From NCBI GenBank assembly GCA_964626415.1, contig CAZVFH010000003.1:1-55252 (forward strand): 55,252 nt of DNA, read 5' to 3'. This DNA is from an uncultured Candidatus Saccharibacteria bacterium (GTDB lineage Bacteria; Patescibacteriota; UBA1384; XYA2-FULL-43-10; CAINNR01). The notes below the pieces were generated by a model. The model did not search any database. It had not been told where the DNA came from and worked only from the letters and a program-made list of their open reading frames with translations. The position numbers and the translations under genes are program-made. Within the stretch, counting starts at the first letter, position 1, and every line of letters starts with the position of its first letter. This document shows, piece after piece, positions 1,459 to 50,821 of the stretch.

Positions 1459-2795
1459 TGAAAGAAATTTTAAAAAAAGCCGAAAAGTTGGGATGTGTTA
1501 TTCCCCACAAAAAGTGGGATGAGATTGATCGTGGAGTTATGCCGGTTTTGCGGGCGATGGAGGAGGTGGGGGTAAAAGTTGATGTCAACTTGCTTCGCAA
1601 GTTAAGTAAAAAGCTAAAAGTTAAAAGTGAAAAGCTACAAAAAGAAATTTTTAAGCAAGCCGGCGAGGAATTTAACTTATCATCCCCTTTGCAATTGTCC
1701 GACATCTTATTCAAGAAATTAAAACTACCAACTGGTGACATTCGTAAAATTAAAAGCGGAATTTCAACTTCGGCTTCGGAATTATCAAAATTGAAAGACA
1801 AGTCGCCGATAATTGGTAAGATTTTGGAGTATCGCGAACTTTCAAAATTAATTTCGACTTATCTCGCGCCACTTCCAAAAATGGTTGATGAAAATTCTCG
1901 GCTTCATAGCCATTTCGGTCAAGACACGCGAACTTCGCGACTTACATCGTCTGACCCAAATTTGCAAAATATTCCAATTAAAGGTGACTTTGGTCCACAA
2001 ATTCGTGCCGCATTCATTGCCGAAAAAGGAAATGTTTTGGTCTCTGCCGATTATTCACAAATCGAACTTCGAGTTGTTGCTTGCCTTTCTGGGGATGAAA
2101 AGATGCTCGAGGCGTTTTCAGAGGGAGTTGATATTCACGCTCGAACTGCCTCCGAACTTTTTAGAGTGCCAGTTGAAAAGGTAAATCACGACCAACGTCG
2201 ATTAGCAAAGACGGTTAATTTTGGTGTCCTTTACGGTATTTCGCCATTCGGACTTTCGCAAGCGCTGGGAATTGGACAGGATACGGCAGCCGAATATATT
2301 CGTCGTTACTTCGAAACTCATATTGGCGTAAAAAGATACTGCGACGATCAAGTTGCTTTTGCCAGAAAAAATGGCTACATTGAAACACTTTTTGGCTTTA
2401 AAAGAGAGCTTAAAAATATAAACTCGAATATTCGCTCTCTTGCCGAATCAGAGGAACGAATGGCGATAAATACGCCAGTGCAAGGAACAGCGGCAGAGAT
2501 TTTAAAACTTTCAATGATTGAACTTCATCGCAAATTAAATCAAAAATCCAAAATCCAAAATCCAAAATCTAAATATCAGAACAATTTAGCAATACAACCA
2601 TTTAACAATAAAGCTGTGCTTTTGCTTACTGTTCATGATGAACTTTTGGTCGAGACGCCGAAAAAAGAAGCAAAAAATGTCGCCAAGTTGATGAAAGAGA
2701 TTATGGAAAGCACGGTCAAACTTTGCGTGCCAGTGGAAGTAGAAGTTGGCATTGGCAGAAATTGGAACGAAGCAAAGAATAACACAAATCTTTGA
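1458..2795 (+). CDS. polA: DNA polymerase I, polymerase domain only (family A; no 3'-5' exonuclease domain)
   Basis: Family A motifs SSDPNLQNIP, DYSQIELRV, RRLAKTVNFGVLYG and TVHDELLVE. The protein starts about 30 aa before the thumb/palm region. ATG at 1458 is preferred over the upstream TTG at 1443. Confidence 0.9.
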   Translation: MKEILKKAEKLGCVIPHKKWDEIDRGVMPVLRAMEEVGVKVDVNLLRKLSKKLKVKSEKLQKEIFKQAGEEFNLSSPLQLSDILFKKLKLPTGDIRKIKSGISTSASELSKLKDKSPIIGKILEYRELSKLISTYLAPLPKMVDENSRLHSHFGQDTRTSRLTSSDPNLQNIPIKGDFGPQIRAAFIAEKGNVLVSADYSQIELRVVACLSGDEKMLEAFSEGVDIHARTASELFRVPVEKVNHDQRRLAKTVNFGVLYGISPFGLSQALGIGQDTAAEYIRRYFETHIGVKRYCDDQVAFARKNGYIETLFGFKRELKNINSNIRSLAESEERMAINTPVQGTAAEILKLSMIELHRKLNQKSKIQNPKSKYQNNLAIQPFNNKAVLLLTVHDELLVETPKKEAKNVAKLMKEIMESTVKLCVPVEVEVGIGRNWNEAKNNTNL

Positions 2796-2832
2796 CACAA
2801 ATAAACACAAATATGGGATTTACTCGCTTCGG

Positions 2833-4250: not shown

Positions 4251-4260
4251 TATAATATAG

Positions 4261-4370
4261 ATAATTTAAAATTTAAAATTTAAAGTTCAAAATTTTGGTA
4301 TCCGCCTTTGGCGGATGAGCTATAATAGTTATTCCATAATTTTGATTTTTGATTTTTGCATTTTGAATTA
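4261..4370 (+). repeat. AT-rich hairpin element H1 with a central GC mini-hairpin and a CTATAATAG core
   Basis: The A-rich periodic left arm (AATTTAAAATTTAAAATTTAAAG) pairs with the U/G-rich right arm (AATTTTGATTTTTGATTTTTGCATTTTGAA) using U:G wobbles. The centre is ATCCGCCtttGGCGGAT followed by CTATAATAGTTATTCCATAATTTTG. Paralogous copies lie at 5871-5977 and 19801-19906. Confidence 0.8.
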
Positions 4371-4385
4371 TTTTTGGGAGGGGTT

Positions 4386-5870: not shown

Positions 5871-5977
5871 GAAATTTAAAATTTAAAATTTAAAAATCAA
5901 AATTATTGTGTCCCGACAAGTCGGGACGGACTATTATAGTAATTCCATAATTTTGAACTTTGAATTTTGCATTTTAA
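5871..5977 (+). repeat. AT-rich hairpin element H2 (same family as H1)
   Basis: Arms are AAATTTAAAATTTAAAATTTAAAAATCAAAATT and AATTTTGAACTTTGAATTTTGCATTTT. The centre is GTCCCGACaaGTCGGGAC followed by ACTATTATAGTAATTCCATAATTTTG. Confidence 0.8.
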
Positions 5978-5985
5978 GCTTTGCT

Positions 5986-6549: not shown

Positions 6550-6570
6550 ATCATCGGATATGTATAGTTC

Positions 6571-6647
6571 GTCATCTCCGATTTAGTCGGGGATCCGCTT
6601 ATAGTAAAATTCAACCATAAGTGGATTCCCGCTTTCGCGGGAATGAC
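6571..6647. repeat. REP-like inverted pair element, copy R2
   Basis: Sequence is GTCATCTCCGatttagTCGGGGATCCGC ... GTGGATTCCCGCtttcGCGGGAATGAC. It generates the spurious ORF starting MDSRFRGND. Confidence 0.8.
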
Positions 6648-6673
6648 CGGACACAAATAAAAAACCATCTGAT

Positions 6674-7036: not shown

Positions 7037-7111
7037 AGTTCGCTTCGCTCAAATTTAAAATTTAAAGTTTAAAATTCAAAATTGTGGAATAATTTTCTTA
7101 ATACATCTGAA

Positions 7112-7410: not shown

Positions 7411-7519
7411 CTCGTGCCTCCCTGCGACAGGATAACTTTAGAATAGCACTTTCGGAGAAATTTGTCAATGACTTGCGGAAAAAAGATATATTCTGTATGA
7501 TACAAAGTTGAGTCAAAAA

Positions 7520-7624
7520 TTGAAGTAAAAACTACCACAGATCAACCGCCACAGATTATCACAGATAAAACCACTAGAAATCTGTGCCGATCAGTGTTAA
7601 TTAATCTGTGAGAGTTTATACTTC
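7520..7624 (+). repeat. CACWGAT-heptamer promoter/leader module, copy A
   Basis: Begins TTGAAGTAAAAACTACCACAGATC. Contains about 7 copies of CACAGAT / ATCTGTG / ATCAGTG and ends GAGAGTTTATACTTC. Paralogues lie at 20622, 49435 and 50667. Confidence 0.85.
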
Positions 7625-9290: not shown

Positions 9291-9302
9291 TTTAATATTT
9301 TA

Positions 9303-9330
9303 GGTAACCGAATTGGTTACCTTTTTTTTT
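9303..9330 (+). terminator. Rho-independent terminator
   Basis: GGTAACC-gaatt-GGTTACC stem followed by T9. Confidence 0.8.
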
Positions 9331-9371
9331 GATAAATTTTTTTGTTTCTGATACTATAAATTCAAAGGAGC

Positions 9372-9560
9372 GTGATCATAGTGGCAAAAAAACCGGAACC
9401 TGTTTATATTTCCCCAGAAGATTTAGAATGTTATCCCGAAACAAAAGAAGCAAGAAAAATTAAAGATGCAGTACAAAGAGCAAGAAAAGAAGCATCGATC
9501 TACGAAGGAACATATATTTCACTACAACCGCCTCGCCAACTGGTTCGGTTGCCCATATAG
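9372..9560 (+). CDS. small basic protein, tandem paralogue 1 (likely GTG start at 9381)
   Basis: AAGGAG SD. The promoter-like sequence TTGATA-17-TACTAT and the 5' leader are almost identical to those of the second copy. Has its own terminator. Confidence 0.5.
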   Translation: MIIVAKKPEPVYISPEDLECYPETKEARKIKDAVQRARKEASIYEGTYISLQPPRQLVRLPI

Positions 9561-9602
9561 TTGCGAATTATTTTTAAACGATTTACTTGCGATTATCATT
9601 TT

Positions 9603-9632
9603 GATCATCCACTCGGATGGTCTTGTTTTTTT
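9603..9632 (+). terminator. Rho-independent terminator (unit 1 of the tandem cassette)
   Basis: GATCATCC-actc-GGATGGTC stem followed by TTGTTTTTTT. Confidence 0.65.
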
Positions 9633-9711
9633 GAAAAACAGAAAAGTGGTGCAATAATCTGAATTTTTCTAGACATCTTTTTTTGTTTCTGATACTATAA
9701 GTAAAAGGAGC

Positions 9712-9897
9712 GTGATCGCAGTGGCGAAACGCAAACCGAAGGAGATAATTATTTCTCGAAGGTCTTTGAACAGATGGCCCGAAGAGAGGGCGGCTCGGCA
9801 ATGGAAAGAGAAAGCAATTAAAGAATCACAGAGACAGCAAGCATTAGCGTTGGGGCGACTATTTTATCCCCGCAGGCATTTTCCAAGAGTACGCTGA
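9712..9897 (+). CDS. small basic protein, tandem paralogue 2 (likely GTG start at 9721)
   Basis: Same leader (TTTTTTTGTTTCTGATACTATAAGTAAAAGGAGCGTGATCGCAGTGGCGAAA) and the same terminator type as copy 1. The coding part has diverged but is alignable (VAKKPEP.YIS vs VAKRKPKEIIIS). Confidence 0.5.
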   Translation: MIAVAKRKPKEIIISRRSLNRWPEERAARQWKEKAIKESQRQQALALGRLFYPRRHFPRVR

Positions 9898-9947
9898 TCA
9901 TCTGATTGTGTTCTTTCTTCTGTGTTTTATTTCAAAAACTTATTTTT

Positions 9948-9977
9948 GACCATCCAATCGGATGGTCTTGTTTTTTT
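9948..9977 (+). terminator. Rho-independent terminator (unit 2 of the tandem cassette)
   Basis: GACCATCC-aatc-GGATGGTC stem followed by TTGTTTTTTT. Confidence 0.75.
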
Positions 9978-10417: not shown

Positions 10418-10473
10418 CCAGGATAATCTTTGACGCCGAATTAACGCTGATATTTAATATTATTAAAGACGGT

Positions 10474-10578
10474 TGATAGTGGAAGGTAGAAGCTGGATTT
10501 TGAAGATGGAAGTTGGAAGATGGATTATCTAATTTCTAACTTCTATCGTCAAATTCTATTTTCAATTTTCTACTATCT
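10474..10578 (+). other. long imperfect RNA hairpin in the rpsO-pnp intergenic region
   Basis: The purine-rich left arm (GATAGTGGAAGGTAGAAGCTGGATTTTGAAGATGGAAGTTGGAAGATGGA) pairs with the pyrimidine-rich right arm (TAATTTCTAACTTCTATCGTCAAATTCTATTTTCAATTTTCTACTATC). About 10 of the pairs are G:U, so pairing works only in the + strand RNA. Confidence 0.7.
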
Positions 10579-10604
10579 AATGTCTAATTCCAAAGGGATT
10601 TTTT

Positions 10605-12799: not shown

Positions 12800-12827
12800 T
12801 TGACAAATAGTGAAAAATCTGTATAAT
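12800..12827 (+). promoter_or_regulatory. strong sigma-70-like promoter (TTGACA-16-TATAAT)
   Basis: Consensus hexamers at 12800-12805 and 12822-12827, lying 38 nt upstream of the ATG at 12866. Confidence 0.7.
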
Positions 12828-14233: not shown

Positions 14234-14262
14234 TTGACAAAGTAATTTTTATTTGCTATACT
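14234..14262 (+). promoter_or_regulatory. sigma-70-like promoter (TTGACA-17-TATACT)
   Basis: Consensus -35 at 14234-14239 and -10 at 14257-14262, upstream of the UDG gene. Confidence 0.6.
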
Positions 14263-14985: not shown

Positions 14986-14989
14986 GAAA

Positions 14990-15105
14990 TTTTCAATTTT
15001 ATAATTTCCAATGAATTTTCAATGTATTAATTTCCAAACTTTCAATCATTGAAAATTGAATTATTGATTGTAAATTGAAAATTGCAAAATTAAAAATTAA
15101 TTATT
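14990..15105 (+). other. imperfect low-complexity hairpin (TTTCAAT / ATTGAAA units), ung-rnj intergenic region
   Basis: Centre is TTTCAATcATTGAAA at about 15047. Both arms are built from the same 7-10-nt units in opposite orientation, with roughly 70% pairing. Confidence 0.55.
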
Positions 15106-16935: not shown

Positions 16936-16981
16936 AAAGTTGTAAGTTGTGAGCTGGTAAGTCGTAAGCAAAAAAAGAAAC

Positions 16982-19799: not shown

Positions 19800-19800
19800 T

Positions 19801-19906
19801 AATTAAGAGTTCAGAATTAAGATCTCAAAATTATGGTATCCCGACTAGTCGGGAGTAACTATAATAGTCATTCCATAATTTTGCATTTTGATTTTTGCAT
19901 TTTAAA
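19801..19906 (+). repeat. AT-rich hairpin element H5 (same family as H1/H2)
   Basis: CAAAATTATGG ... CCATAATTTTG is a perfect 11-bp inner stem. The centre is TCCCGACtaGTCGGGA followed by ACTATAATAGTCATTCCATAATTTTG. Confidence 0.8.
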
Positions 19907-19914
19907 TTTTTTAT

Positions 19915-20610
19915 ATGGTTGCTGCGGGATTTAAGCTACATAAAATTAGGGCATCAAGGCCTTTCGGTGAACGGCTAAGACGAGCCAGAAAACGGCTTGG
20001 GGTTGATTTAATAGAGGCGGAACTTGCGACCAAGATTAGAGCAAAATATTTAGAAGCGCTTGAGAATGAAGATTTTGAAGTACTACCAAATGATATTTAT
20101 GTTAAGGGTTTTGTCATCACTTACGCGAAATACTTGAAGCTTGATCCCGAGAAATTTTTTAATCTTTTTTTAAAGCAAAGATCAGCAGTTGCATATAGTC
20201 AACCAGCCAATTTTTTAGTCAAAAAAACAAAAACGGCAAAGAGTTTTATCTTATCTCCAAAAATATTGACTATCTTTTTTGTCGCCGTTTTATCAATTCT
20301 GGCCATCTCTTATGTGACTATCGGTGTTTATAATTTTACCTCTGTCCCACAACTTGAGATTTTTACTCCAGTGAACAATTCAGCAACAGCAGATGAAATT
20401 GTAAATATCACTGGCAAAACTGAGGAGAGTTCCCGTCTTTTTATCAACAAACAGTCGGTATCGATTGGTGAAAGCGGCAACTTTCAGCTTGAGCTTTCAC
20501 TTCAAAATGGGATTAACACTATCGTAGTTACATCGGAGGGAAGAAATAATCGAATTTCAAGCAAGATAATCATTGTTGAGAGAAAGATGAAAACGGCGAG
20601 TGGACAGTAA
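19915..20610 (+). CDS. RodZ-like HTH membrane protein
   Basis: N-terminal HTH (FGERLRRARKRLGVDL...YLEALENEDFE.LP...YVKGF), one TM segment and an extracytoplasmic C-terminal domain. Confidence 0.7.
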   Translation: MVAAGFKLHKIRASRPFGERLRRARKRLGVDLIEAELATKIRAKYLEALENEDFEVLPNDIYVKGFVITYAKYLKLDPEKFFNLFLKQRSAVAYSQPANFLVKKTKTAKSFILSPKILTIFFVAVLSILAISYVTIGVYNFTSVPQLEIFTPVNNSATADEIVNITGKTEESSRLFINKQSVSIGESGNFQLELSLQNGINTIVVTSEGRNNRISSKIIIVERKMKTASGQ

Positions 20611-20621
20611 ACTGACAAATA

Positions 20622-20764
20622 TGGAAGTAAAAACTACCACAGATCTATTGTCACTAATAAACACTGATAATTCTATCAGAGACAATCCGTGACGATAGAT
20701 CAGTGAGAGTTTATAATTCACTGTTCGATTCGTAATTTCGTTTTAATTAGTAATTTCGTAGGGG
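20622..20764 (+). repeat. CACWGAT-heptamer promoter/leader module, copy B (upstream of recA)
   Basis: Begins TGGAAGTAAAAACTACCACAGATC and runs through GATCAGTGAGAGTTTATAATTC, followed by the shared leader TTCGTAATTTCG...TTCGTAGGGG. Confidence 0.85.
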
Positions 20765-20780
20765 AACTGGGAGGAGTTTT

Positions 20781-23421: not shown

Positions 23422-23988
23422 ATGTATGTTCCAAGGAATCCGCTAGGATATAAAAAACTTTTGACATGGCCCGCCTGCATCAGCTGTGCTGAAAGCATTG
23501 CGGGCAGGAGACAGGCGAATAAGATTTTCGTGTTAACGGAGGAGTTTGTGAAATCGTTATCAAAATTTCATCCGCAGACGCGCCAAAGAACGATGGATAC
23601 TGCTGATCATATGTTGCGGTCGACGCAGTCGGTTGTTCGGAATATTGAAGAAGGTTTTTCACGAGCGACGACCAAGGAATATGTAACTTTTTTGGGATTT
23701 TCCAAAGGATCTTTGGAAGAATTATTAAATGATTTTGAATACTGCCGGCGGAGTAATCTCGGCGATGAGAAGATTTCCGATCAAGCGATTTTTCTCTGCA
23801 AAGGCGAGGGGAAGATGCTTCACAACCAGATAGAATCACTCGAACGAAAGCGATTTTCTGATGGTACAACTTCAGTAAATGAGAAAATAGCAAATCATTG
23901 GCAGAAAGAATCACAAAGAAAAAAAGAATTCGATAAGTATTTAAGAGAGTTTATGGGAGATAAGGGGAAGAAGGAAGAAGAAAATTAA
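23422..23988 (+). CDS. four-helix-bundle protein (23S rRNA IVS / Avd-like family)
   Basis: Family-typical SVVRNIEEGFSR...YVTFLGFSKGSLEELLNDF. Carries an in-frame GC-rich hairpin insert near the N-terminus. Confidence 0.7.
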   Translation: MYVPRNPLGYKKLLTWPACISCAESIAGRRQANKIFVLTEEFVKSLSKFHPQTRQRTMDTADHMLRSTQSVVRNIEEGFSRATTKEYVTFLGFSKGSLEELLNDFEYCRRSNLGDEKISDQAIFLCKGEGKMLHNQIESLERKRFSDGTTSVNEKIANHWQKESQRKKEFDKYLREFMGDKGKKEEEN

Positions 23989-23989
23989 T

Positions 23990-24105
23990 GGAGGGATTTT
24001 AGGGGAGGTAAAGGGGAAGGATAAGGACAAGGGAAAAGGGGAAATTAGGGGAGCTTAAGGGGATCGTTCTAACTCTGAAACCCTTAACATCCCCTAAATT
24101 CCCTT
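23990..24105 (+). other. G-tract-rich purine run ending in an imperfect 25-bp hairpin, directly upstream of recX
   Basis: At least 6 GGGG/GGG tracts between 23990 and 24063. AAGGGGAAATTAGGGGAGCTTAAGGGG pairs with CCCTTAACATCCCCTAAATTCCCTT. Confidence 0.6.
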
Positions 24106-24113
24106 AAACAAAA

Positions 24114-24560: not shown

Positions 24561-24690
24561 TACAATAAAGATAAATCAAAAATCAAAATTCAAAAATCAA
24601 AATGATTGTAAAATTCAAAATTCCAAACCATTTTTCATTTTGAATTGTAATTTTGATCTTTGCAATTTGCATTTTGAATTTTCTAGGAGG
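24561..24690 (+). other. imperfect low-complexity hairpin (AAATCAAAA / TTTTGAATT units), recX-ppsA intergenic region
   Basis: The A-rich left arm (AAATCAAAAATCAAAATTCAAAAATCAAAATG) faces the U/G-rich right arm (CATTTTGAATTGTAATTTTGATCTTTGCAATTTGCATTTTGAATTTT). Confidence 0.55.
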
Positions 24691-27074: not shown

Positions 27075-30000
27075 ATGAGGGGAATTATAAAATTTAGAAT
27101 CAAAAAGCCAAAATTGGCAGTTTTTGTGGTTGTATCTACAGCCGTAGTTTTGCTGTGGAGAAATATTTTTTCCTTTTTGAAGAGAAGATTTCGATTAGCT
27201 CTATTGTTAACAGAAAATAATAAGCAAGTAAGGGAAATAGTAAAAAGGATTAGACATTTATTTAGAAGATTCGCTCTAAAAGCGGCTGTTCTTTCGGCAC
27301 TAATAGGATTAATTTTTACTCTGACTATTCCACATATCAAGGCCGAATCATCGGCTTGGGATTTTGGCGTCTCTGGCGACTATACTTTTGACAGCAATCT
27401 GATCGAAGTTATATCAAATTCGGGGCGATTGAAAGATCAGCAATATGTGACCGATGCCAACACCGCCGGACTCTGGCATAACGATGAATCCTCTGGGCTT
27501 ACGGCAGACGATGCCTCGGCTAACGCTAATGACGCCACTCTTTGCGCTAACGGTTCGGTATTTTCAACGGGAAAGATCAACAACGCTCTCTCGCTTGACG
27601 GCAACGCTAGTTGCGCCAAAGTCAACGACTCGGCGTCTTTATCAATGTCAAGCGCTCTGACCCAAGAAGCGTTTGTCAAATTTAACAGCGCTTTTGACAA
27701 AACAAGCGGAAATCCTTTTACCGTCACTGACAAAGGGAATTACAAACTGTATTTTGACTCAACTGACGGCAAATTGAAATTTGAGCTTGATCCAAGCACG
27801 GCTAAAAGCTGGACAAAGCAGGGCGAAGGAGTCGGAAACAGCTGGCCGATTCAAAATCCGGGATCGGTTCGATCGCTTGTCGAGTACAGTTCGGCTCTTT
27901 ATGTTGGTTTGGAAGGAGCAGCCGGCGACGCCGAGATCTGGCGCTACAGCGGAAGCGGCACTAGTTGGACGAAAATCGGCGGCGACGGGCTTAACTCCAG
28001 TTGGGGCGATCAGATGTTTGAAAGCGTTACATCCTTGATCGTTAGGGGAACGAATATTCTCGCTGGTCTTGGAAGCACCACTAACGACGCCGAGGTTTGG
28101 AGCTGGAACGGCTCGGCCTGGACTAAAATCGGCGGCGATGGGCTCAACCAAAGCTGGAGTAGTAATGATCGGGTTTTTGCTTTTGCCAACATCGGTTCGA
28201 TCACTTATGCAGCGACCGGTTCAAATGGTGCCGGTGGCGCCAATGTTTATAGCTATGATGGTTCGATTTGGACATGGATCGGCGGCCAAGGGATTAATTC
28301 AAGTTGGGCTGCCACTACCTATGAACAGGCCTACAGCATTACCGCTTCGGCTACGACTTTGTATGTTGGGTTGGGCTTCAATACCGGAGAAGCCGAGGTT
28401 TGGAGCTGGAACGGTTCGTCTTGGACTAAAATTGCTGACGATGGTTTGGGCTTTTCCGCCGGCTACGAGATAGTCGCAAGTTTAGTGTATTCAGGAACTA
28501 CTCTTTATGCTGGGCTTAGCAACAACGCTGGTGATGCTGATGTTTATAGTTGGAATGGTACAACTTGGACACAAATTGGCGGCGACGCCCTTAATTCCAG
28601 CTGGACGGGAAGTTATGAGAGCGTCCAAGGACTAATTATGGTTAATTCGGTACTATACGCCGGTCTTGGAACCAACGCCGACGACGCCGAGGTTTGGAGC
28701 TGGAACGGCTCGGCCTGGACTAAAATCGGCGGCGACACCCTTAATTCCAGCTGGACTTACGGCAAGGAATCTGCTTGGCTCGGGTCGCTCGGCAACGATC
28801 TGATTGTCGGGACGGGAATCGAGTACTATGACTCCGAGGTCTGGCGCTACAGCGGAGGCGCTTGGAGCTGGATCGGTGGCAAGGACTATAATTCATGGGC
28901 GCCGTCTGTTTTAAGCTCGGTTTATTCACTGGCGATTAATGACGGCAAACTCTATGTTGGCTTTGGAGGAACAAATAAACAAGCAGTCGTTTGGCAGTAT
29001 GACGGCGCAAATTGGAGCCATGTCGGTGGCAATGTCAATTCCAGCTGGGATGAGTCAATAGAATATGTCTACTCACTGGCTTCGTACAATGGTAAGGTTT
29101 ATGCCGGACTGGGGAATGGCACCGGAGACGCCGATCTTTGGGAATTTAACGGCACAAATTCTTGGACCAAGGTCGGCGGCGACGCCGTCAATTCTAGCTG
29201 GGCGGCCTCAACTTTTGAAGATGTTCGCACTCTCCTCATTTATAAAGGCGAGATTTATGCCGGGCTGGGTTATAGCTCTAACGACGCCGAGGTTTGGAAA
29301 TATAATGGTTCAAGCTGGACCAAAGTTGGTGGCGATGGCGCTAATTCGAGCTGGAGCAACAATAGCGTCGAGGTAAATTCAATGACTTCCGACGGGCGTT
29401 ATATTTATGCCGGTGTTTCTGGGGATGGCACAAATAATGCCTCGGAAATCTGGCGTTGGGACAACTCAACTTGGACGCAGATCGGCGGCGATAGGATAAA
29501 CTCCAGCTGGGAACAGGGCAATGTGGCGCTGGTCAACTCATCGGCGACTTATGACGGCAACACCTATGTCGGTCTCGGTACATACGCCGGCATGGCAGAG
29601 GTTTGGAAATTTAATGGTTCGGCTTGGTCAATAGTCGGGGGCAACAATATAAACTCTTCTTGGGGGGTCAATACCTATGAAGGAGTTTACAGTTTGGCGG
29701 TCTACGGAACAAATCTCTATGCCGGTTTAGGTAGTGGCACTGATGACGCCGAGGTTTGGAGCTATAACGGTTCAACATGGACAAAAGTTGGTGGTGATGC
29801 CGTCAATTCCAGCTGGGCAGCATCAACTTATGAATATGTTTTTAGCATGGCGGTTTACGGCGCAAATCTTTACGCCGGATTAGGAGCTTCTACCAGCGAC
29901 GCCGAGGTCTGGAGCTGGAATGGCACGGCTTGGACAAAAGTTGGCGGGGATAGCGTCAATTCCAGTTGGGGAGCTGGTTATGAAATGGTTTACAGCTTAG

Positions 30001-33000
30001 CAGTTTTTGGCGCTAATTTATATGCCGGACTAGGGAATAGCACTGACGACGCCGAGGTCTGGAGCTTTAACGGCTCGGCTTGGACTAAAGTTGGTGGCGA
30101 CGGCGTTAATACGAGCTGGACAACCGGCTATGAAGCGGTTTATAGCCTGGCCGCCTCGGCTACTAATCTCTACGCCGGTCTTAGCAGCGACGCCGGCGAC
30201 GCCGAGGTCTGGAGCTTTAACGGCTCGGCTTGGACCAAAATCGGCGGCGACGGCTTAAATTCAAGCTGGGCCGATGCAACCTATGAAGAGGTTGATAGTT
30301 TAGCCGTTTCAGGATCAACTTTGTATGCTGGAATTGGACTCACTGCTGGTGACGGTGAGGTCTGGAGCTTTAACGGCTCGTCTTGGACTAAAATTGGCGG
30401 CGATAGCGTCAATTCGGGCTGGACAACCGGTTATGAATCCGCCAGAACACTGCTGGTTTCCGGCTCAACACTTTTTGCCGGACTGGGGAACACAATCCGT
30501 GACGCCGAGGTTTGGAGTTGGAACGGCTCGGCTTGGACCAAGGTCGGCGGGGATAATCTTAATTCAAGCTGGGGCGAGGCTCTTGAATATGTCTTTTCTT
30601 TGGCAATTTATCTTGGAGATCTCTACGCTGGATTCGGAAATAACGTCGGCGACGCCGAGGTTTGGAAATATAACGGCTCAAGCTGGAGCAAAATTGGCGG
30701 CGATGGTGTCAACTCTAGTTGGGGTGATCTGGAGTATGAGGCCGTTTACAGTTTAGTTGAATATAATGGTTTGCTCTACGCCGGATTGGGAGATTCCGCC
30801 GGCGATGGTGAGCTCTGGAGCTTTAACGGTACGAGCTGGACCCAAATTGGCGGGGATGGCATTAATTCAAGTTGGACAGGAACTTCCTATTACAGGGCTT
30901 ACTCGATGATTACTTATAATGGAAAACTTTATGCTGGTCTTGGTTCAACATCCGCTGGAACCGCCGCCGGAGAACTCTGGTCGTATGGCAATAACACGGT
31001 ACTTAGTTCAACTTCAACCAGCTGGTCTACCGGTTGGTATCATCTTGCCGCCACCTACGACGGCTCGACGGTTAAGCTTTATGTCAACGGGACTCTTGAC
31101 AATTCCGCATCAGCCACCTTAACCCTGTCTGATCTTTCTACCCCGCTTTATATCGGTACCGGTTTAGGGACGAATTCTACTTATTCCACAACCAATAACT
31201 TTATTGGTTTGGTAGACGAAGTGAGGGTATCGAACAGCGCAAGGACGACTTTTGTCACCAGTAAATACTCGACCTCCTCTCCAACTATTCGGCCGACTGC
31301 CACTCTGTCTTCAACCGGTGTTACACAGTGGAGCGGTTTTGCTTCAAATGAAACATTAAATGGTGGCACGATTAAATACCGTCTTTCAAACGACAACGCC
31401 GCCAGTTGGAAATATTGGAACGGCTCAAGCTGGGCAACCTCATCTTCTGTTTCAGAGTCAAACTTGACTGCCGATATTAACTCACAGATTACGACTTTTT
31501 CCGTAACGAGTAACGGTCTTCACTGGCAAGCCATTTTAATCAGCGATGGAGATCAGCTGGTCATTTTGAACAGCGTAACGATCTCTTTTACTATTGACAC
31601 TTCCGCTCCGGATTTACCCTCCACTTTGACAGCTAAAAATGAAACTGGTGGCTTAGTTGATTTAACCACTAATACTTGGTATAAATATCCGACCCCGGCT
31701 TTCTCATGGAATGTTCCCGATGATAATGCCGGACAAGGTGAACTTCCTTCGGGAATCGCCGGATATTATGTTTACTTCGGAACGGACGATACAGCCGACC
31801 CGTTGACCGCTGGAGCGTATCAAACCGGAACCTCATATTCTGCTTCAAATTTAATTACCGGTTCAACTTATTATCTCCTGATTAAAGTTAAGGACAACGC
31901 TTCAAATACAACAACAAATATCTGGTCGCCGTTTATTTACAAATATGATGGCACTGCTCCAACGGTTTCAGAGTTTATCAATGTTTCACCCGTTGGTTGT
32001 TCAATTTCCTCTACCTTCACTTTTACTTGGCTGGCAGGAGCGGACACCGGAGGATCTGGTCTCTCCGGCTATGAATATAAAGTCGGCTCAACAGGAACGG
32101 TCTTGGCAATTAACGATCTGACGGTTACTGTCGCGCCTTATCAGGAAGGAGATAATGTCTTTTACTTAAGAGCGAAAGATGTCGCCGGTAATACCTCTGG
32201 TTGGCAGACAAGCGTTTTCTGCTCAACAGGCGCGGCTCAAATAATTGACGGACCGACGGTTTCTTCCAATCCCTCGACAATTGTTGTAACTTGGATCTCG
32301 ACCAAGGAAACTACCTCCTTTGTCCAAGTTTACGAAGACAATACTTATATCTCTGAACAAGGGCACAATGAATACACCCTATCGCACTCCGTCAGAGTAG
32401 TCGGATTGCAGCCAGAGAGAAATTATCGCTATAAGTTGGTTTGGATTGATTCGACAAATAACATGGGGGAGAGTAATTGGTTCGAAACCAGTACTACCAA
32501 ATCACCCTCCTTCTCGAATGTGACAACCGAGCTTTTAAGTCCGCAGGATATCCTTGTCTCATGGGCAACAAGCAGATCGAGCCAATCAAAGATATTCTTT
32601 GGTGAAAATTCTCCGACTCAAGAAATTGCTATCGACGGTTATTCCACAACCTTCTCTAAAAAATTGACAAATCTAAAGGGCGGCACGACATATCTAATAA
32701 AATTAAAGGCAACAACTGAAGATAATTTTGAATTTCAATCAGATAACTACTCATTTTCTACTCCTCCTCTGCCGTTAATTTCCAGTGTAAGATTCGATGC
32801 GATTTCTGACCGAGCTGGAAGCGCGATGAGGATTACATGGACAACGAATATTGAGACAACTTCTTCCATTTATTTTGGACCTAAGGGAGAAAATAAAAAA
32901 GAAATTTCTTCAAGTGAGTTAAAAATTGAGCATGAAATGGAAATGGTTGACCTTGCTGATTCGACAATATACGAAGTTATTGTTAAGGGAACTGATAAAT

Positions 33001-33437
33001 TTGGGAATGTGACAACTTCCGACACTAATTCTTTTACCACCCCAATGGATACTCGCCCCCCGGTAATTTCAGGTATTATTATTGAAACTTCAAATGTCGG
33101 TCTCGACAAACAGGATAAAGCCCAGATCGTTGTAAGTTGGAAAACTGATGAACCGACTTCGAGTCAAATCGAATACGGAGAAGGTCTTTCTGAGGGAAAT
33201 TATACTCAAAAAACAGTTGAAGATAAAACAATGACTAATTCTCATCTAATAATTATCTCCGAATTAATTCCGGGTAAGCCATATCATTTTAGAGTCATTT
33301 CGTCTGATGGGGCCGGCAATGTAACCTTTTCAGAGGATCATGCTGTGATTCCTGGCGAAGTACCAAGCAGTGCTTTGCAGTTGATTTTAAATATCTTTCA
33401 GAAATTATTTGGTTGGATTGGACTAGGGAAAAACTAA
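27075..33437 (+). CDS. giant (2120 aa) N-terminally anchored surface protein: split LamG-like domain enclosing ~21 Kelch-like blades, then a conserved ~80-aa domain and ~6 FN3-like domains
   Basis: Two N-terminal hydrophobic segments. LamG-type signatures appear before the repeats (NALSLDGNASCAKV...FVKFNS) and after them (WYHLAATYDGSTVKLYVNG...FIGLVDEVRVSN). Repeat consensus is LYAGLG...DAEVWSWNGSAWTKIGGDGLNSSW. FN3-like segments carry W..S/T and Y.Y.V patterns. Confidence 0.85.
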   Translation: MRGIIKFRIKKPKLAVFVVVSTAVVLLWRNIFSFLKRRFRLALLLTENNKQVREIVKRIRHLFRRFALKAAVLSALIGLIFTLTIPHIKAESSAWDFGVSGDYTFDSNLIEVISNSGRLKDQQYVTDANTAGLWHNDESSGLTADDASANANDATLCANGSVFSTGKINNALSLDGNASCAKVNDSASLSMSSALTQEAFVKFNSAFDKTSGNPFTVTDKGNYKLYFDSTDGKLKFELDPSTAKSWTKQGEGVGNSWPIQNPGSVRSLVEYSSALYVGLEGAAGDAEIWRYSGSGTSWTKIGGDGLNSSWGDQMFESVTSLIVRGTNILAGLGSTTNDAEVWSWNGSAWTKIGGDGLNQSWSSNDRVFAFANIGSITYAATGSNGAGGANVYSYDGSIWTWIGGQGINSSWAATTYEQAYSITASATTLYVGLGFNTGEAEVWSWNGSSWTKIADDGLGFSAGYEIVASLVYSGTTLYAGLSNNAGDADVYSWNGTTWTQIGGDALNSSWTGSYESVQGLIMVNSVLYAGLGTNADDAEVWSWNGSAWTKIGGDTLNSSWTYGKESAWLGSLGNDLIVGTGIEYYDSEVWRYSGGAWSWIGGKDYNSWAPSVLSSVYSLAINDGKLYVGFGGTNKQAVVWQYDGANWSHVGGNVNSSWDESIEYVYSLASYNGKVYAGLGNGTGDADLWEFNGTNSWTKVGGDAVNSSWAASTFEDVRTLLIYKGEIYAGLGYSSNDAEVWKYNGSSWTKVGGDGANSSWSNNSVEVNSMTSDGRYIYAGVSGDGTNNASEIWRWDNSTWTQIGGDRINSSWEQGNVALVNSSATYDGNTYVGLGTYAGMAEVWKFNGSAWSIVGGNNINSSWGVNTYEGVYSLAVYGTNLYAGLGSGTDDAEVWSYNGSTWTKVGGDAVNSSWAASTYEYVFSMAVYGANLYAGLGASTSDAEVWSWNGTAWTKVGGDSVNSSWGAGYEMVYSLAVFGANLYAGLGNSTDDAEVWSFNGSAWTKVGGDGVNTSWTTGYEAVYSLAASATNLYAGLSSDAGDAEVWSFNGSAWTKIGGDGLNSSWADATYEEVDSLAVSGSTLYAGIGLTAGDGEVWSFNGSSWTKIGGDSVNSGWTTGYESARTLLVSGSTLFAGLGNTIRDAEVWSWNGSAWTKVGGDNLNSSWGEALEYVFSLAIYLGDLYAGFGNNVGDAEVWKYNGSSWSKIGGDGVNSSWGDLEYEAVYSLVEYNGLLYAGLGDSAGDGELWSFNGTSWTQIGGDGINSSWTGTSYYRAYSMITYNGKLYAGLGSTSAGTAAGELWSYGNNTVLSSTSTSWSTGWYHLAATYDGSTVKLYVNGTLDNSASATLTLSDLSTPLYIGTGLGTNSTYSTTNNFIGLVDEVRVSNSARTTFVTSKYSTSSPTIRPTATLSSTGVTQWSGFASNETLNGGTIKYRLSNDNAASWKYWNGSSWATSSSVSESNLTADINSQITTFSVTSNGLHWQAILISDGDQLVILNSVTISFTIDTSAPDLPSTLTAKNETGGLVDLTTNTWYKYPTPAFSWNVPDDNAGQGELPSGIAGYYVYFGTDDTADPLTAGAYQTGTSYSASNLITGSTYYLLIKVKDNASNTTTNIWSPFIYKYDGTAPTVSEFINVSPVGCSISSTFTFTWLAGADTGGSGLSGYEYKVGSTGTVLAINDLTVTVAPYQEGDNVFYLRAKDVAGNTSGWQTSVFCSTGAAQIIDGPTVSSNPSTIVVTWISTKETTSFVQVYEDNTYISEQGHNEYTLSHSVRVVGLQPERNYRYKLVWIDSTNNMGESNWFETSTTKSPSFSNVTTELLSPQDILVSWATSRSSQSKIFFGENSPTQEIAIDGYSTTFSKKLTNLKGGTTYLIKLKATTEDNFEFQSDNYSFSTPPLPLISSVRFDAISDRAGSAMRITWTTNIETTSSIYFGPKGENKKEISSSELKIEHEMEMVDLADSTIYEVIVKGTDKFGNVTTSDTNSFTTPMDTRPPVISGIIIETSNVGLDKQDKAQIVVSWKTDEPTSSQIEYGEGLSEGNYTQKTVEDKTMTNSHLIIISELIPGKPYHFRVISSDGAGNVTFSEDHAVIPGEVPSSALQLILNIFQKLFGWIGLGKN
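27830..30980 (+). repeat. tandem ~150-nt coding repeats (Kelch-like blades) inside the giant gene
   Basis: Near-identical strings such as GACGCCGAGGTTTGGAGCTGGAACGGCTCGGCCTGGACTAAAATCGGCGGCGA recur (for example near 28085 and 28685). About 21 units are present, and they are GGC-rich relative to the flanks. Confidence 0.85.
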
Positions 33438-45149: not shown

Positions 45150-45620
45150 TTAATATTTTCGAAATTCTCGACGCTTTTTGGCTAAATTTTCACTGAAACC
45201 GCCTTTTTCAATAAAGATTTTTTCCAGCGATCGACGTTGCTGGTCGAGCAAATAATTTGTTCTGGTGGTTAGGTCAATCATATAGTTTAGAAAAGAAGGC
45301 AAAGACGGTGAAGAAGGCAAAGAGGAGAAAGGAGAGCGAACAATTTTAATGTTCCAGTCACCTGCTAAATCTTTGTAATCCTCAAGCAACTCCTCGCCGG
45401 AGGCGCGGCTAAAACTAATAAATTCAATGTAATCTTTTAGTCCGATTCTGGCCGCGCCTTCGGCAAGATTTTGTTTCATTGAACGAGCCGACGAATTCAT
45501 ATGGTCTTTGAGTCGGCTGTCTTTTATTGGGTGCAAATACTTGGCAGTAAATTCTTTGGTTAGTTGATAAATCTCTTTTGACTGAATGTAGGTAATTGTT
45601 TTTTTGTAATCTGTTTTCAT
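45150..45620 (-). CDS. four-helix-bundle protein (23S rRNA IVS / Avd-like family), second copy
   Basis: Family-typical SMKQNLAEGAAR...YIEFISFSRASGEELLEDY. Carries an in-frame Ser/Pro-rich low-complexity insert (SPFSSLPSSPSLPS). Confidence 0.7.
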   Translation of the reverse strand: MKTDYKKTITYIQSKEIYQLTKEFTAKYLHPIKDSRLKDHMNSSARSMKQNLAEGAARIGLKDYIEFISFSRASGEELLEDYKDLAGDWNIKIVRSPFSSLPSSPSLPSFLNYMIDLTTRTNYLLDQQRRSLEKIFIEKGGFSENLAKKRREFRKY

Positions 45621-47403: not shown

Positions 47404-47480
47404 ATTTTTGGGGGTTATTTTTGACCAGAAGGCAATTTTAAGGTAGGGTGGAGGTAGAATAATTTAATCAATTAAGTTCT

Positions 47481-47603
47481 GTCATCCCCGATTTAGTCGG
47501 GGATCCACAAAAAGCAAATTTCAACTATTAGTGGATTCCCGCGACTCGACTGAGCTCGCCGATGTCCGGAGTTTACCCCGATAAGTATCGGGGTGGGAAT
47601 GAC
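47481..47603. repeat. REP-like inverted pair element, copy R3, with a nested GC-rich insertion
   Basis: The left unit and spacer are as in R1. The right unit is interrupted after GTGGATTCCCGCG by about 50 nt (ACTCGACTGAGCTCGCCGATGTCCGGAGTTTACCCCGATAAGTATCGGGGT) before GGGAATGAC. Confidence 0.75.
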
Positions 47604-47652
47604 ATTTCGCAAACAATTATTGCCAACTATTTTTTTGTGCTATATTTGAGTT

Positions 47653-49443
47653 ATGAATGAAGTTGAGGAAGTGAAAAATAAAATTGATATCGTCGAACTG
47701 ATCGGCGGATATTTGTCGTTAAAAAAAGCCGGTGTTAATTACAAAGCGCTTTGTCCCTTTCACACGGAAAAAACGCCGTCGTTTATGGTTTCGCCTGAAA
47801 GGCAAAGTTTTCGCTGTTTTGGTTGCAATAAGGGTGGCGATATTTATACTTTTATTGAAGAAATCGAGGGAATGGAATTTTTTGATGCTTTGAAATTGCT
47901 TGCCGGAAAAGCCGGAGTTGAACTGAAAAAAAGACAAAATTTTTCCTACGGCGAAAAAGAAATTAAGCCGACAGAGAAAACCCGACTTTTTGAAATAAAT
48001 GATCTGGCGGCAAAATTGTATCATAAAATTTTACTTGATCATCCGAAAGCCGAAGGCGCGAGAAATTATTTAAAAAAACGGGGAGTCAAAAAAGAAACAA
48101 TAATAAACTGGAATCTCGGCTATGCGCCGAAAATGTGGGATTTACTTTCTAAATTTCTTGGCAAAAAGGGTTATTCGGAAAAAGAAATTTTCAAAGCCGG
48201 GCTTTTGGTTTTGGGTGAGTCGGGCAAATACTGGGATCGTTTTCGCGGCCGGATTATGTTTCCAATTTGCAATATTTCCGGTCAAGTTATTGCTTTTACT
48301 GGTAGGGTTTTGGACGATTCCGACCTGCCTGCCGGCAGGCAGGTCCAAAAAGCGGCGAAGTATGTCAATTCATCAGAATCGCCGATTTACACCAAAGGAA
48401 AAACGATTTATGGCCTCGATCGGGCGCGTTTGGATATTCGAGCGCAAAATCGTTCGGTTTTAGTCGAGGGTAATATAGATGTCATTGCTTGCCACACGGC
48501 CGGTTTTAAAAATGTTGTCGCTGTTTCTGGCACGGCTTTAACTTCGGAGCAATTAAAAATTCTCGCCCGCTATTCACCGGAGGTGATTTTGATTTTTGAT
48601 TCTGATAATGCCGGCATCGTGGCGATGAAACGAGCAATATCTTTGGCTTTGCAAAACGATTTATCTCCAAAGGTGACGACATTTCTTGGCTTTAAAGATC
48701 CAGATGAAGCAATAAAAGCCGATCCGAAAAATTTCGAGCGAGCGATCAAAGATGCAAAGCCAGCGCTAACTTACTGGATCGATTCTTTGATCTTGGAAAA
48801 TGATATTCTTGCGCCAGATGGGCGAAAAAAAATTTCAAGGGAGATTCTGCCGGTTTTAAAGATTATTTCCGATGAAATCGAAAAGGACTATTATATAAAA
48901 TATCTGGCAAAAAAATTGTCGGTTTCCGAGTCGGTTGTTAAAGAACAGATTAAAAAAACGAAGTCGCAAATTGGCGATCAAAATTATGCGTCAAATTCGG
49001 AAGTGAAGAAAAGTCAGAATCAAATAGAAAATTCAAGCGAAAGAATCTTTCAAAAAATTGCCGGGATTGTTTGGCAGTCGCCAGAGCTTGTGAGTATTTT
49101 GCCAAAAGAGATATTTTCTGAAAATTTTTCCGATAAAATGTTAAGTGATTTTTTTGCTTACATTAAAGAAAAAAAAGAAAAGAACTTACTTTCATCTGAA
49201 CTTCGGGCAAAGCTGGACAGTTGGTCGCTCCTGGCAACTGCTGATCTTGAACAAAGTGAAGAACAGATTTTAAAAAAAGAACTTCAGTCACTTGTAAAAA
49301 CATATTTGGAGGGGAAGAAAGAAGCAATAAAATCAGAATATGCCCAAAAAATTGCTGAAGCTGAATCAAGCGGTGATCGGGAAAAATTAAAATCATTGTT
49401 AAAAGAGTTTCAGAATGCTATCATTAATAATGAATTGAAGTAA
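47653..49443 (+). CDS. dnaG: DNA primase
   Basis: Zinc-binding motif CPFHTEKTPSFMV...CFGCNKGGD. TOPRIM motifs (EGNIDVIA, DSDNAG). Contains an in-frame 24-nt perfect palindrome. The last codons and the stop lie inside repeat copy C. Confidence 0.92.
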   Translation: MNEVEEVKNKIDIVELIGGYLSLKKAGVNYKALCPFHTEKTPSFMVSPERQSFRCFGCNKGGDIYTFIEEIEGMEFFDALKLLAGKAGVELKKRQNFSYGEKEIKPTEKTRLFEINDLAAKLYHKILLDHPKAEGARNYLKKRGVKKETIINWNLGYAPKMWDLLSKFLGKKGYSEKEIFKAGLLVLGESGKYWDRFRGRIMFPICNISGQVIAFTGRVLDDSDLPAGRQVQKAAKYVNSSESPIYTKGKTIYGLDRARLDIRAQNRSVLVEGNIDVIACHTAGFKNVVAVSGTALTSEQLKILARYSPEVILIFDSDNAGIVAMKRAISLALQNDLSPKVTTFLGFKDPDEAIKADPKNFERAIKDAKPALTYWIDSLILENDILAPDGRKKISREILPVLKIISDEIEKDYYIKYLAKKLSVSESVVKEQIKKTKSQIGDQNYASNSEVKKSQNQIENSSERIFQKIAGIVWQSPELVSILPKEIFSENFSDKMLSDFFAYIKEKKEKNLLSSELRAKLDSWSLLATADLEQSEEQILKKELQSLVKTYLEGKKEAIKSEYAQKIAEAESSGDREKLKSLLKEFQNAIINNELK

Positions 49444-49558
49444 AAACTATCACAGATCTATTTTCACTGATAAACACAGATGATTCTATCAGTGATGATC
49501 TGTGACGACAGATCAGTGAGAGTTTATAATTCCTTTTTTATTTTTTATTTCGTAGGAG
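49435..49558 (+). repeat. CACWGAT-heptamer promoter/leader module, copy C (upstream of rpoD)
   Basis: Runs from TTGAAGTAAAAACTATCACAGATC to GATCAGTGAGAGTTTATAATTC, followed by TTTCGTAGGAG immediately before the rpoD ATG. Confidence 0.85.
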
Positions 49559-50666: not shown

Positions 50667-50812
50667 TTGAAGTAAAAACTACCACAGATTTATTATCACT
50701 GATTGACACAGATAGAATCATCAGTGAAAATCTGCCCGCCCGCCGTAGTCCGCATACTGCGGGCGAAGGAGGGTGACGATAGATCAGTGAGAGTTTTTAA
50801 TTCGTAATCCGC
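50667..50812 (+). repeat. CACWGAT-heptamer promoter/leader module, copy D, with a nested GC-rich hairpin
   Basis: Same ends as copies A-C, but with the -10 degraded to TTTTAA. The insert CGCCCGCcgtagtccgcatactGCGGGCG lies at about 50733-50775. The shared leader TTCGTAATCCGCAGGGG follows. Confidence 0.8.
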
Positions 50813-50821
50813 AGGGGTAAG

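Follow-up and report, generated by a model that had tools for sequence, protein, structure and literature searches.

What is the short palindromic repeat that stands immediately before recA, rpoD and two other genes of an uncultured bacterium filed as Candidatus Saccharibacteria: a shared operator, a folded RNA or a small mobile element? The repeat, which is built on the heptamer CACWGAT (W being A or T), is found in positions 1 to 55,252 of contig CAZVFH010000003.1 (assembly GCA_964626415.1); this whole stretch of 55,252 nucleotides is termed the window. Four full copies, A to D, are present there. [quoted passage not shown]

Anatomy of the repeat

A hidden Markov model (HMM) built from the four copies detects exactly these four on the + strand of the window (E values 3.4e-30 to 3.6e-27), in agreement with a preliminary description that was made from the letters alone. 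As every copy is itself palindromic, the same model also matches A to D on the − strand (E 1e-11 to 2e-15); nothing further is found below E 0.7. Copy limits were placed at the points where an alignment of 11 copies loses similarity, i.e., from the first G of GAAGTAAAAAC to the C of TTTATAnTnC. The element has a standard length of ∼96 nt and a range of 96–135 nt, and no open reading frame (ORF) lies inside it.

Read directly and aligned, copies A to D share the left end (T)TGAAGTAAAAACTAYCACAGAT and the right end ATCWGTGAGAGTTTATAnTTC. The left arm consists of three direct CACWGAT heptamers with starts 14 and 10 nt apart, and the right arm of three inverted ATCWGTG heptamers in mirror spacing. 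The ends form imperfect terminal inverted repeats of ∼22 nt (GAAGTAAAAACTAYCACAGAT and ATCWGTGAGAGTTTATAWTWC), with termini that read GAAG...CTTC; comparison of GAAGTAAAAACTACCACAGATC with the reverse complement GAATTATAAACTCTCACTGATC gives 17 matches in 22 positions in B and C, and 18 in 21 in A. The heptamer is strongly over-represented in the window, with 31 occurrences against 8.3 ± 2.8 expected, a number reached in 0 of 100 shuffles. Twenty-three of the 31 are inside copies A to D, and the eight outside represent the chance level. The preliminary description had assigned six to seven heptamers to each copy. This holds for A and C, which have six exact heptamers each, but D has five, and B has three exact ones together with three degenerate forms (CACTAAT, ATCAGAG, ATCCGTG).

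Copy A (7522-7624, + strand) displays CACAGAT three times, followed by ATCTGTG, ATCAGTG and ATCTGTG. It is situated between two divergent genes, rpsT (−) and a gene (+) that encodes a DHH/DHHA1 NrnA-like protein. A native-looking promoter region (TTGTCA...TATATT) is present upstream of it, at about 7467-7500. The −10-like box of copy A, TATACT (7617-7622), is followed 15 nt further by the ATG (7638) of the nrnA-like gene, which has no Shine-Dalgarno (SD) sequence. The ORF caller starts this gene at GTG 7608, inside the copy; the real start is almost certainly ATG 7638.

Copy B (20624-20719, +) lies between a gene for a RodZ-like HTH_25 protein (stop codon at 20608-20610) and recA. A promoter-like GTGACG-17-TATAAT is found at 20689-20717, with the −10 at 20712-20717. 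The copy is followed by a tail or leader (20720-20780) that contains TTCGTAAT (20729-20736), a second GTAATTTCGT and CGTAGGGG (20757-20764), after which come a native SD, GGAGGAG (20770-20776), and the recA ATG at 20781.

Copy C (49437-49532, +), with heptamer centres A T A in the left arm and A T A in the right, is at the junction of dnaG and rpoD. The dnaG stop codon TAA (49441-49443) is within the GAAGTAAAAAC end of the copy, and the promoter-like GTGACG-17-TATAAT spans 49502-49530 (−10 at 49525-49530). Its tail is a U-rich stretch and then CGTAGGAG (49551-49558), which abuts the ATG of rpoD (49559), the gene for the sigma-70 factor.

Copy D (50669-50803, +) begins 3 nt past the rpoD stop codon (50663-50665). 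It carries an insertion, a 39-nt G+C-rich hairpin (50733-50771). TTTAAT (50796-50801) takes the −10 position, and the tail TTCGTAATCCGCAGGGG (50801-50817) precedes the GTG (50822) of a gene for an uncharacterised 161-amino-acid protein. Domain searches thus agree with the nrnA-like, recA, rpoD and fourth downstream genes first proposed.

Distribution and related repeats

The left-end 21-mer was scanned as an exact word through the GTDB species representatives (596 Gb, a single genome for each species) and through JGI metagenomes; matches were tested with the HMM and read. True copies are found only in three or four related Berkelbacteria-like genomes (loci L004-L007, L010, L011, L014 and L016). 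In the Berkelbacteria metagenome-assembled genome (MAG) JAPLVG01 (L004-L007), the element is ahead of a 178-amino-acid gene, lemA, the gene for a pilB-like ATPase and rpoA. In the MAG CAYHDN01 (L010 and L011) it is ahead of a small ORF beside a dinB-like gene, and ahead of recA; this MAG is filed as Saccharibacteria, and its RecA is 89% identical to that of the window. L016 is the same sequence, obtained from Hainich groundwater. L014, on one metagenome contig, is ahead of rpmI. The RpoD protein of the window is also encoded on a contig of GCA_007376605.1 and in two ENA assemblies, and homologues of proteins that neighbour the copies are labelled Candidatus Berkelbacteria or Patescibacteria. 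The window is itself a contig of Candidatus Berkelbacteria, within the candidate phyla radiation (CPR). JAPLVG01 has at least four full copies of the main family plus variants. Across the fragments seen, the density of the family is about one per 5–14 kb.

Matches to the 21-mer in Peribacteria, Gracilibacteria, Reichenbachiella and three metagenome contigs (L008, L009, L012, L013, L015, L017) do not extend past the 21-mer and were rejected. In L009 and L012 the match is inside a long ORF, where it reads E-V-K-T-I-T-D; the others are due to chance. A viral origin was also rejected, as IMG/VR viral contigs contain no copy and nine 17-mer matches there fail to extend. Because the search relied on the left end, part of the invariance seen there is due to ascertainment. 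The right end ATCWGTGAGAGTTTATA, which was not used in the search, is conserved in 9 of the 11 copies, which come from four genomes.

Pattern scans of every locus that was fetched reveal a superfamily that has the same three-plus-three design, other heptamers and related ends, GGAAGT...ACACGGATC. A CACGGAT variant is upstream of ftsK in L018, a CACAAAT variant is upstream of the RNase J gene in L022, and ACACAGA variants are upstream of rodZ and of recA, also in L022. A GGAAGTAAGCCCACAGATC subfamily member is between pilT-like and pilC-like genes in L006. The L007 copy ahead of rpoA is a hybrid, with a CACWGAT left arm joined to an ATCCGTG right arm and with a different right end. Five solo left arms were detected: one in the window, at 2783-2812 (+), two in L007 (993 and 6293) and two in L022 (440 and 874). 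The window solo arm has three CACAAAT in the same spacing, overlaps the polA stop codon and lacks a right arm; its region is a weak HMM match (2769-2813). The superfamily thus has 21 members, 16 full elements and five solo arms, all intergenic.

In L007 (about 1025-1065) and in L022 (about 480-545), superfamily arms are succeeded by a leader of the form TTCGTA...TAATTT(C/A)GTAGGAG. Since it is present after arms in two other genomes, the leader TTCGTA...TAATTTCGTAGGRG belongs to the repeat and not to the host genes; between 0 and 16 nt separate it from the start codon. A leader had been ascribed to copies B to D. It is recognizable in B (TTCGTAAT...CGTAGGGG) and D (TTCGTAATCCGCAGGGG), but C has only CGTAGGAG, and A has none.

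No report of such repeats was found in the literature searched on Berkelbacteria or on the CPR, and Patescibacteria go unmentioned in the text of a MITE survey that covered 183,232 genomes.

Orthologous junctions and copy relationships

Corresponding junctions of relatives were fetched through homologues of RpoD and of the fast-evolving RodZ-like protein. At the rodZ-recA junction, the element is present in the window (copy B) and in L011, whose RodZ is 48% identical. The closest relative, L023 (RodZ 79% identical), has a GTAAG-type palindrome instead, as does L018; L022 has the ACACAGA variant, and only gaps of 15 nt and 8 nt are found in L020 and L038, respectively. The dnaG-rpoD junction is occupied by the element only in the window (copy C). 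L024 and L028 have 18-nt gaps there, and L025, L026 and L027 have three different A+T-rich palindromes with TCTAAA, AAAAC and ACAAG motifs. The junction downstream of rpoD, the place of copy D, is empty in L024 and L025.

The L038 locus is syntenic with 5.9–27 kb of the window (lepB, rpsT, nrnA, rpsO, pnp, UDG, rnj, ftsK, rodZ, recA, recX, ppdK), and none of these elements is found in it. Its nrnA has an ordinary TTGACA-17-TATATT promoter and an SD, with no element. At rpoD, recA and nrnA, the element can therefore be dispensed with and is specific to certain lineages.

The spacers of L038 are also far shorter than those of the window: 8 vs. 170 nt for rodZ-recA, 18 vs. 115 nt for ftsK-rodZ and 53 vs. 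1274 nt for nrnA-rpsO. The L038 locus is free of all palindromic repeats, and the window genome is unusually rich in intergenic insertions for a CPR bacterium.

Copy identities were computed without the ascertained 21 nt. Copies B, C and D of the window are mutually 80–88% identical (B vs. C, 88%). Copy B is only 73% identical to the L011 copy at the same junction; the latter is closest to L004 (84%), and copy A is closest to L014 (81%). Copies thus cluster by genome or subfamily, not by site. As read from these identities, clustering is of the kind expected if copies amplified after speciation or converted one another, and not of the kind expected from vertically inherited regulatory DNA. Spacers and ends are common to the copies, not the heptamers alone, which argues for copying and not for convergent evolution of sites.

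These data bear directly on the proposal that the heptamers are iterated sites of one dimeric transcription factor that co-regulates recA, rpoD, nrnA and the other downstream genes. Several features of the element would suit an operator. Inside the element, conservation is highest at the heptamers, and the innermost two (CACWGAT-N6-ATCWGTG) form an inverted repeat of 20 bp, a size typical of operators. A 10-nt step between heptamer starts would put them on one face of the helix, and the array spans −35 to about −100 of the putative start site. In addition, recA has the element in two species, and the L010 copy adjoins the dinB-like gene. However, absence or replacement of the element at rpoD, recA and nrnA in sister species removes the basis for a conserved regulon, and the downstream genes, which include rpoA, rpmI, lemA, pilB/pilC-like genes, ftsK, rnj and rodZ, have no common theme. 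Isolated heptamers do not exceed the chance number, and no candidate regulator gene is beside any copy. CACWGAT, CACGGAT, CACAAAT and ACACAGA variants exist side by side in one genome (L022 and L004-L007), and the L007 hybrid joins two heptamer types. The regulon of core genes that had been envisaged is decidedly improbable, and binding by a dimeric protein was not confirmed.

Specific regulatory identities fare no better. A LexA/SOS box, brought to mind by the recA and dinB-like neighbours, was rejected: rpoA, rpmI, lemA and pilus genes carry the element, and recA of sister species is without it. By-eye comparison with consensus sequences of DnaA, CRP and Fur boxes and of the IHF site gave no consistent match. 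A DNA uptake sequence was rejected, as heptamers beyond the copies are no more frequent than chance predicts.

Orientation and a putative promoter

All 21 superfamily members are placed just upstream of a gene and point the TATAAT end towards it. Copy A and L010 lie between divergent genes, with no co-directional gene upstream. A −10-like hexamer is located at a fixed distance past the last heptamer. In the ten copies that have this right end, it reads TATAAT (two copies), TATACT (four), TATATT (two), TATCTT (one) and TTTAAT (one, copy D), so that TAnnnT is kept in nine of the ten; the right end of L007 is different. The −35 candidate, GTGnnn, is at the end of heptamer 5, 17 nt upstream, and has 3–4 of 6 consensus matches. 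The GTGACG-17-TATAAT initially noted is exact in B and C, but A displays GTGTTA-17-TATACT and D has TTTAAT, without the key A at position 2. A promoter scan scores B and C at 10 of 12 matches, a level at which chance matches are frequent (53 found vs. 29.5 expected in 14.5 kb).

The ends of the element are asymmetric, as the inverse of the left end reads TTTTAC at the −10 position where the right end has the box. Canonical promoters are used elsewhere in the genome, e.g., TTGACA-16-TATAAT at 12800-12827 and TTGACA-17-TATACT at 14234-14262. Three genes without an SD start shortly after the box: the nrnA-like gene of the window (15 nt), rpmI in L014 (11 nt), whose start is fixed by the N-terminus MPKLKTHK, and the L004 gene (12 nt). 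Such starts would fit transcripts with very short leaders that begin at the element. Sigma-70-like promoters are known in Correia elements, MITEAba12, BrickBuilt and QMITE1 (PMC10969869, PMC2649163, PMC4596501). From the sequence features, the element probably carries its own portable promoter. Of the promoter and SD parts originally proposed, the −10-like box is conserved, and the SD-like CGYAGGRG tail, though limited to one subfamily, is found again in other species.

Alternatively, the repeat might be inert and selfish, the TATAAT being merely part of a terminal repeat and the orientation a result of strand-specific insertion or gene-strand bias. The left end is an imperfect inverse of the right, so TTTATAAT may be an end recognized by a transposase, and neighbouring genes are nearly all co-directional. 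Degenerate copies, internal insertions (D and L006) and solo arms also indicate decay. On the other hand, the left/right asymmetry of TTTATAAT vs. TTTTTAC is kept across genomes, and the L010 element is co-oriented with the minority-strand gene ahead of it and not with the majority of the locus. Genes that start 11–15 nt past the box with no SD would be hard to express without a transcription start site in the element, and, unless something compensates, polar effects should follow from insertion where operons of essential genes are joined (dnaG-rpoD, rodZ-recA). An inert repeat is considered unlikely, though less so than the regulon.

Secondary structure

Both strands of the element fold into a rod, with z-scores of −3.1 to −7.6. 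This raises the possibility that the rod functions as RNA within a polycistronic mRNA, in processing, 3′ stabilisation, termination or attenuation. In L018, a canonical TTGTCA-17-TATACT promoter is found upstream of the CACGGAT variant, and copy A is downstream of its promoter-like region, so both would be in 5′ untranslated regions. PNPase and RNase J are encoded in the genome, and Correia and ERIC elements are processed as RNA (PMC2649163).

Yet covariation is weak. Among 15 aligned copies, 82.6% of cells are paired vs. 80.4% in column shuffles, with 12 compensatory cells. Arm mismatches are mostly transversions, and those of G.U type number six on the sense strand vs. 13 on the antisense strand, so wobble-compatible changes favor the antisense strand. 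An imperfect palindrome of 119 nt in the rpsO-pnp spacer, upstream of pnp (10467-10585), which displays GGAAG/TTCTA motifs, served as a control and has 10 sense vs. 0 antisense. This contrast in wobble counts makes the CACWGAT rod look unlike a hairpin selected at the RNA level. The control palindrome itself is probably a genuine sense-strand RNA hairpin and likely a pnp leader hairpin; L022 and L038 have a long hairpin at this position. The E. coli pnp leader is processed by RNase III.

The whole-element fold had been predicted to mismatch at the heptamer centres, and this is borne out. Of the 33 centre pairs examined in 11 family members, 23 are A.A or T.T and only six are Watson-Crick or wobble, and the systematic mismatch is real. 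Centre patterns of the two arms include ATA/ATA, AAT/TAA and AAA/AAA; shuffles give P of about 0.02 and 0.01, values that are not true probabilities because the copies are related. Centres pair normally in the CACGGAT and ACACAGA variants, and the L007 hybrid breaks all three heptamer centre pairs.

No U-tract follows a G+C-rich stem in the element, which led to rejection of an intrinsic terminator; the genome has ordinary intrinsic terminators, G+C-rich stems with T-runs, at 9302, 9603 and 9948. Rfam gave no match, either for the whole window at gathering thresholds or for the copies at permissive E-values, where only chance microRNA-like and small nucleolar RNA-like matches appeared, and a known RNA family was rejected. 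An RNA role for the rod is accordingly as doubtful as the regulon, and the attenuator with alternative pairings that had been suggested was not confirmed, given the weak covariation and lack of a sense-strand wobble signature.

The repeat as a proposed mobile promoter

The MITE-like, duplicated or mobile cassette with inverted ends that was originally suspected is supported by these data. Criteria for prokaryotic MITEs include a size of 50–800 bp and no coding capacity (PMC11602168). Inverted repeats of 10–15 bp or more at the termini and a target-site duplication of 2–10 bp around each copy are also expected. The CACWGAT element is within this size range and noncoding, has terminal inverted repeats, is dispersed intergenically (four full copies and one solo arm in 55 kb) and varies in presence at orthologous sites, where junctions of 8–18 nt in L020, L024, L028 and L038 are empty and the window has B, C and D. 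Its membership of the MITEs is incomplete because the window has no transposase and no target-site duplication is associated with the copies.

As a MITE-like portable promoter, the element would spread by copying within lineages, through insertion or copying into the tiny stop-to-start spacers of compact operons. The left end is rich in stop codons (TGA, TAA); it may thus overlap the 3′ end of the upstream gene and sometimes provide its stop. Copies would survive only when the promoter-bearing right end faces the downstream gene. This end would provide a TATAAT-like −10 that follows a weak GTGnnn −35 by 17 nt, and one subfamily would add an SD-like CGYAGGRG tail. Insertions that split operons, such as dnaG-rpoD and rodZ-recA, might be tolerated because the element restarts downstream transcription, as Correia elements do in Neisseria. 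The heptamers would most simply be subterminal binding sites for the mobilising protein, since their sequence changes together with the subfamily.

A number of observations weigh against this explanation. The −35 (GTGnnn) is weak, copy D is without the −11 A, and in L010 a separate promoter, TTGGCA-17-TAAATT, is present downstream of the element; moreover, promoter-like matches are commonplace by chance in A+T-rich DNA. In 19 of 21 cases, orientation to the downstream gene cannot be separated from orientation to the gene upstream; replication direction is a possible further confounder. No consistent target-site duplication was detected in 10 copies when each end was shifted by up to 3 nt, which could be explained by old copies or a duplication-free mechanism. 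The 55-kb window encodes no transposase domain, and no autonomous partner was found. The census is based on only ∼0.4 Mb of fragments, and the left-end 21-mer was the route to most copies beyond the window. Finally, the same junctions are repeatedly occupied by different palindrome families, which is unexpected under simple random transposition.

In another model, the CACWGAT element might be one of a class of Berkelbacteria palindromes, each with its own iterated motif (CACWGAT, GTAAG, ACAAG, TCTAAA, AAAATT and others), all of which abut or swallow the upstream stop codon and swap at the same junctions. They would move or home by a mechanism that is directed by structure and not by sequence, or be born in situ by slippage and template switching, and act as single-stranded DNA hairpin substrates similar to attC or REP. 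Such a model would account for the uniform orientation and the missing target duplications, and the A.A and T.T mismatches would mark the strand that is used. The ungapped palindrome scan of relatives was too insensitive for a class-wide census. This model is considered very unlikely.

Other repeats and genes of the window

A second palindromic family is found at 4251-4375, 5871-5985, 7050-7090 (a half copy), 19800-19914 and 24561-24690. It consists of A+T-rich AAAATT/TCAAAAT arms around a short G+C hairpin, followed by ACTATAATAGT, which has a TATAAT box. Its copies begin directly after stop codons (holA, DUF2207, ftsK, recX), and arm mismatches favor sense-strand G.U, 14 vs. 5. Further palindromes with iterated motifs are present in the window (14986-15103, 23989-24108, 16936-16975) and in relatives (L018 10700-10770; L019 725-775; L023 733-800; L026 7781-7820; L027 9905-9985; L025 9860-9960). 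Their motifs are TTTCAAT, GGGGA, GTAAG, ACAAG and TCTAAA, and their starts are usually at, or within, the stop codon of the gene upstream. In sister species, one and the same junction is occupied by different palindrome families. L018 and L019, which encode an identical RodZ protein, have four and six GTAAG units, respectively, before different downstream genes.

An element of ∼80 nt with several hairpins, GTCATCCCCG...CGGGGATCCAC...GTGGATTYCCGC...GCGGGAATGAC, is present three times (2826-2908, 6565-6650 and 47475-47620), the third with an internal insertion. It has no Rfam match at the gathering score and could be another MITE or a small structured RNA. A block of ∼330 nt is tandemly duplicated (9291-9620 and 9630-9960). 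Each block contains a promoter-like TTTCTGATACTATAA, an SD, a small ORF that begins MAKK or MAKR and an intrinsic terminator (GATCATCCACTCGGATGGTC-T7; GACCATCCAATCGGATGGTC-T7). A 2120-amino-acid ORF (27075-33437) has at least 14 tandem repeats of ∼150 nt (50 amino acids) with 60–80% DNA identity.

Genes of the 23S_rRNA_IVP family are found in the window at 23422-23988 (+) and 45150-45620 (−), in L018 (13064-13534) and in L001 (5592-6062). Their variable positions between recA and recX among species suggest mobile or variable cargo. DNA polymerase I is split into 5′-3′ exonuclease and Pol A domain ORFs with a short overlapping ORF between them (107-1183, 1180-1458, 1443-2795), and no 3′-5′ exonuclease domain was detected in these ORFs.

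Significance

CPR bacteria are considered to be extremely streamlined and to have little mobile DNA, and to our knowledge almost nothing has been established on their promoters and operon organisation. In some Berkelbacteria, small repeats that interrupt ancestral operon junctions, dnaG-rpoD and rodZ-recA among them, are tolerated and perhaps put to use. Should the −10 box be active, the element would rewire the transcription units of core genes in one lineage after another, and it would offer a ready-made CPR promoter for reporter work. For annotation, the repeats inflate intergenic regions, create false ORF starts (GTG 7608) and can mislead motif-based prediction of regulons. More intriguing, and unproven in its meaning, is the occupation of the same junctions in sister species by palindromes with different iterated motifs.

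Comparison with known systems

Ends of the Mu/Tn7/IS21 type have several subterminal transposase-binding repeats per inverted end, with sites of ∼19–22 bp, TG...CA termini and 5-bp duplications. The CACWGAT element is similar in having three similarly spaced motif repeats per end, inverted between the ends, and in the joint shift of repeat sequence and subfamily (CACWGAT, CACGGAT, CACAAAT, ACACAGA). It differs in having 7 conserved nt per repeat, GAAG...CTTC termini, and no known duplication or cognate transposase.

REP, BIME and REPIN sequences, which are mobilised by RAYT, resemble it as extragenic palindromes sited just past stop codons, with conserved hairpin imperfections, no target-site duplication and concerted, genome-specific sequence families. 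REP sequences, however, are G+C-rich hairpins of 20–40 nt with a conserved GTAG-type head and depend on a REP-flanked RAYT gene, whereas the present element is an A+T-rich single rod of ∼96 nt with a −10 box. Domain searches of the window proteins revealed no RAYT or Y1-transposase gene.

BrickBuilt of Porphyromonas gingivalis is likewise an intergenic, species-restricted MITE-like repeat with iterated short units, a leader and tail with small inverted ends, and promoter elements (PMC4596501). Its 23-nt units are arranged head to tail without spacers and its promoter activity is bidirectional, in contrast to 7-nt units that are 10–14 nt apart, three direct and then three inverted, with a −10 at one end.

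By analogy, the nearest functional counterpart is the Correia element (CREE/NEMIS) of Neisseria. This is also a palindromic, non-autonomous repeat of ∼100–150 bp with terminal inverted repeats, often immediately upstream of genes; sigma-70-like promoters at its ends drive neighbouring genes, its presence varies between relatives and the hairpin can be co-transcribed (PMC2649163, PMC10969869). Correia elements duplicate a TA target, contain an IHF site and are found in both orientations, with promoters at either end. The element described here has no sequence similarity to them, and it is set apart from both Correia and BrickBuilt by its arms of three heptamers, the mismatched heptamer centres, a single orientation, the lack of a target duplication and a CPR host.

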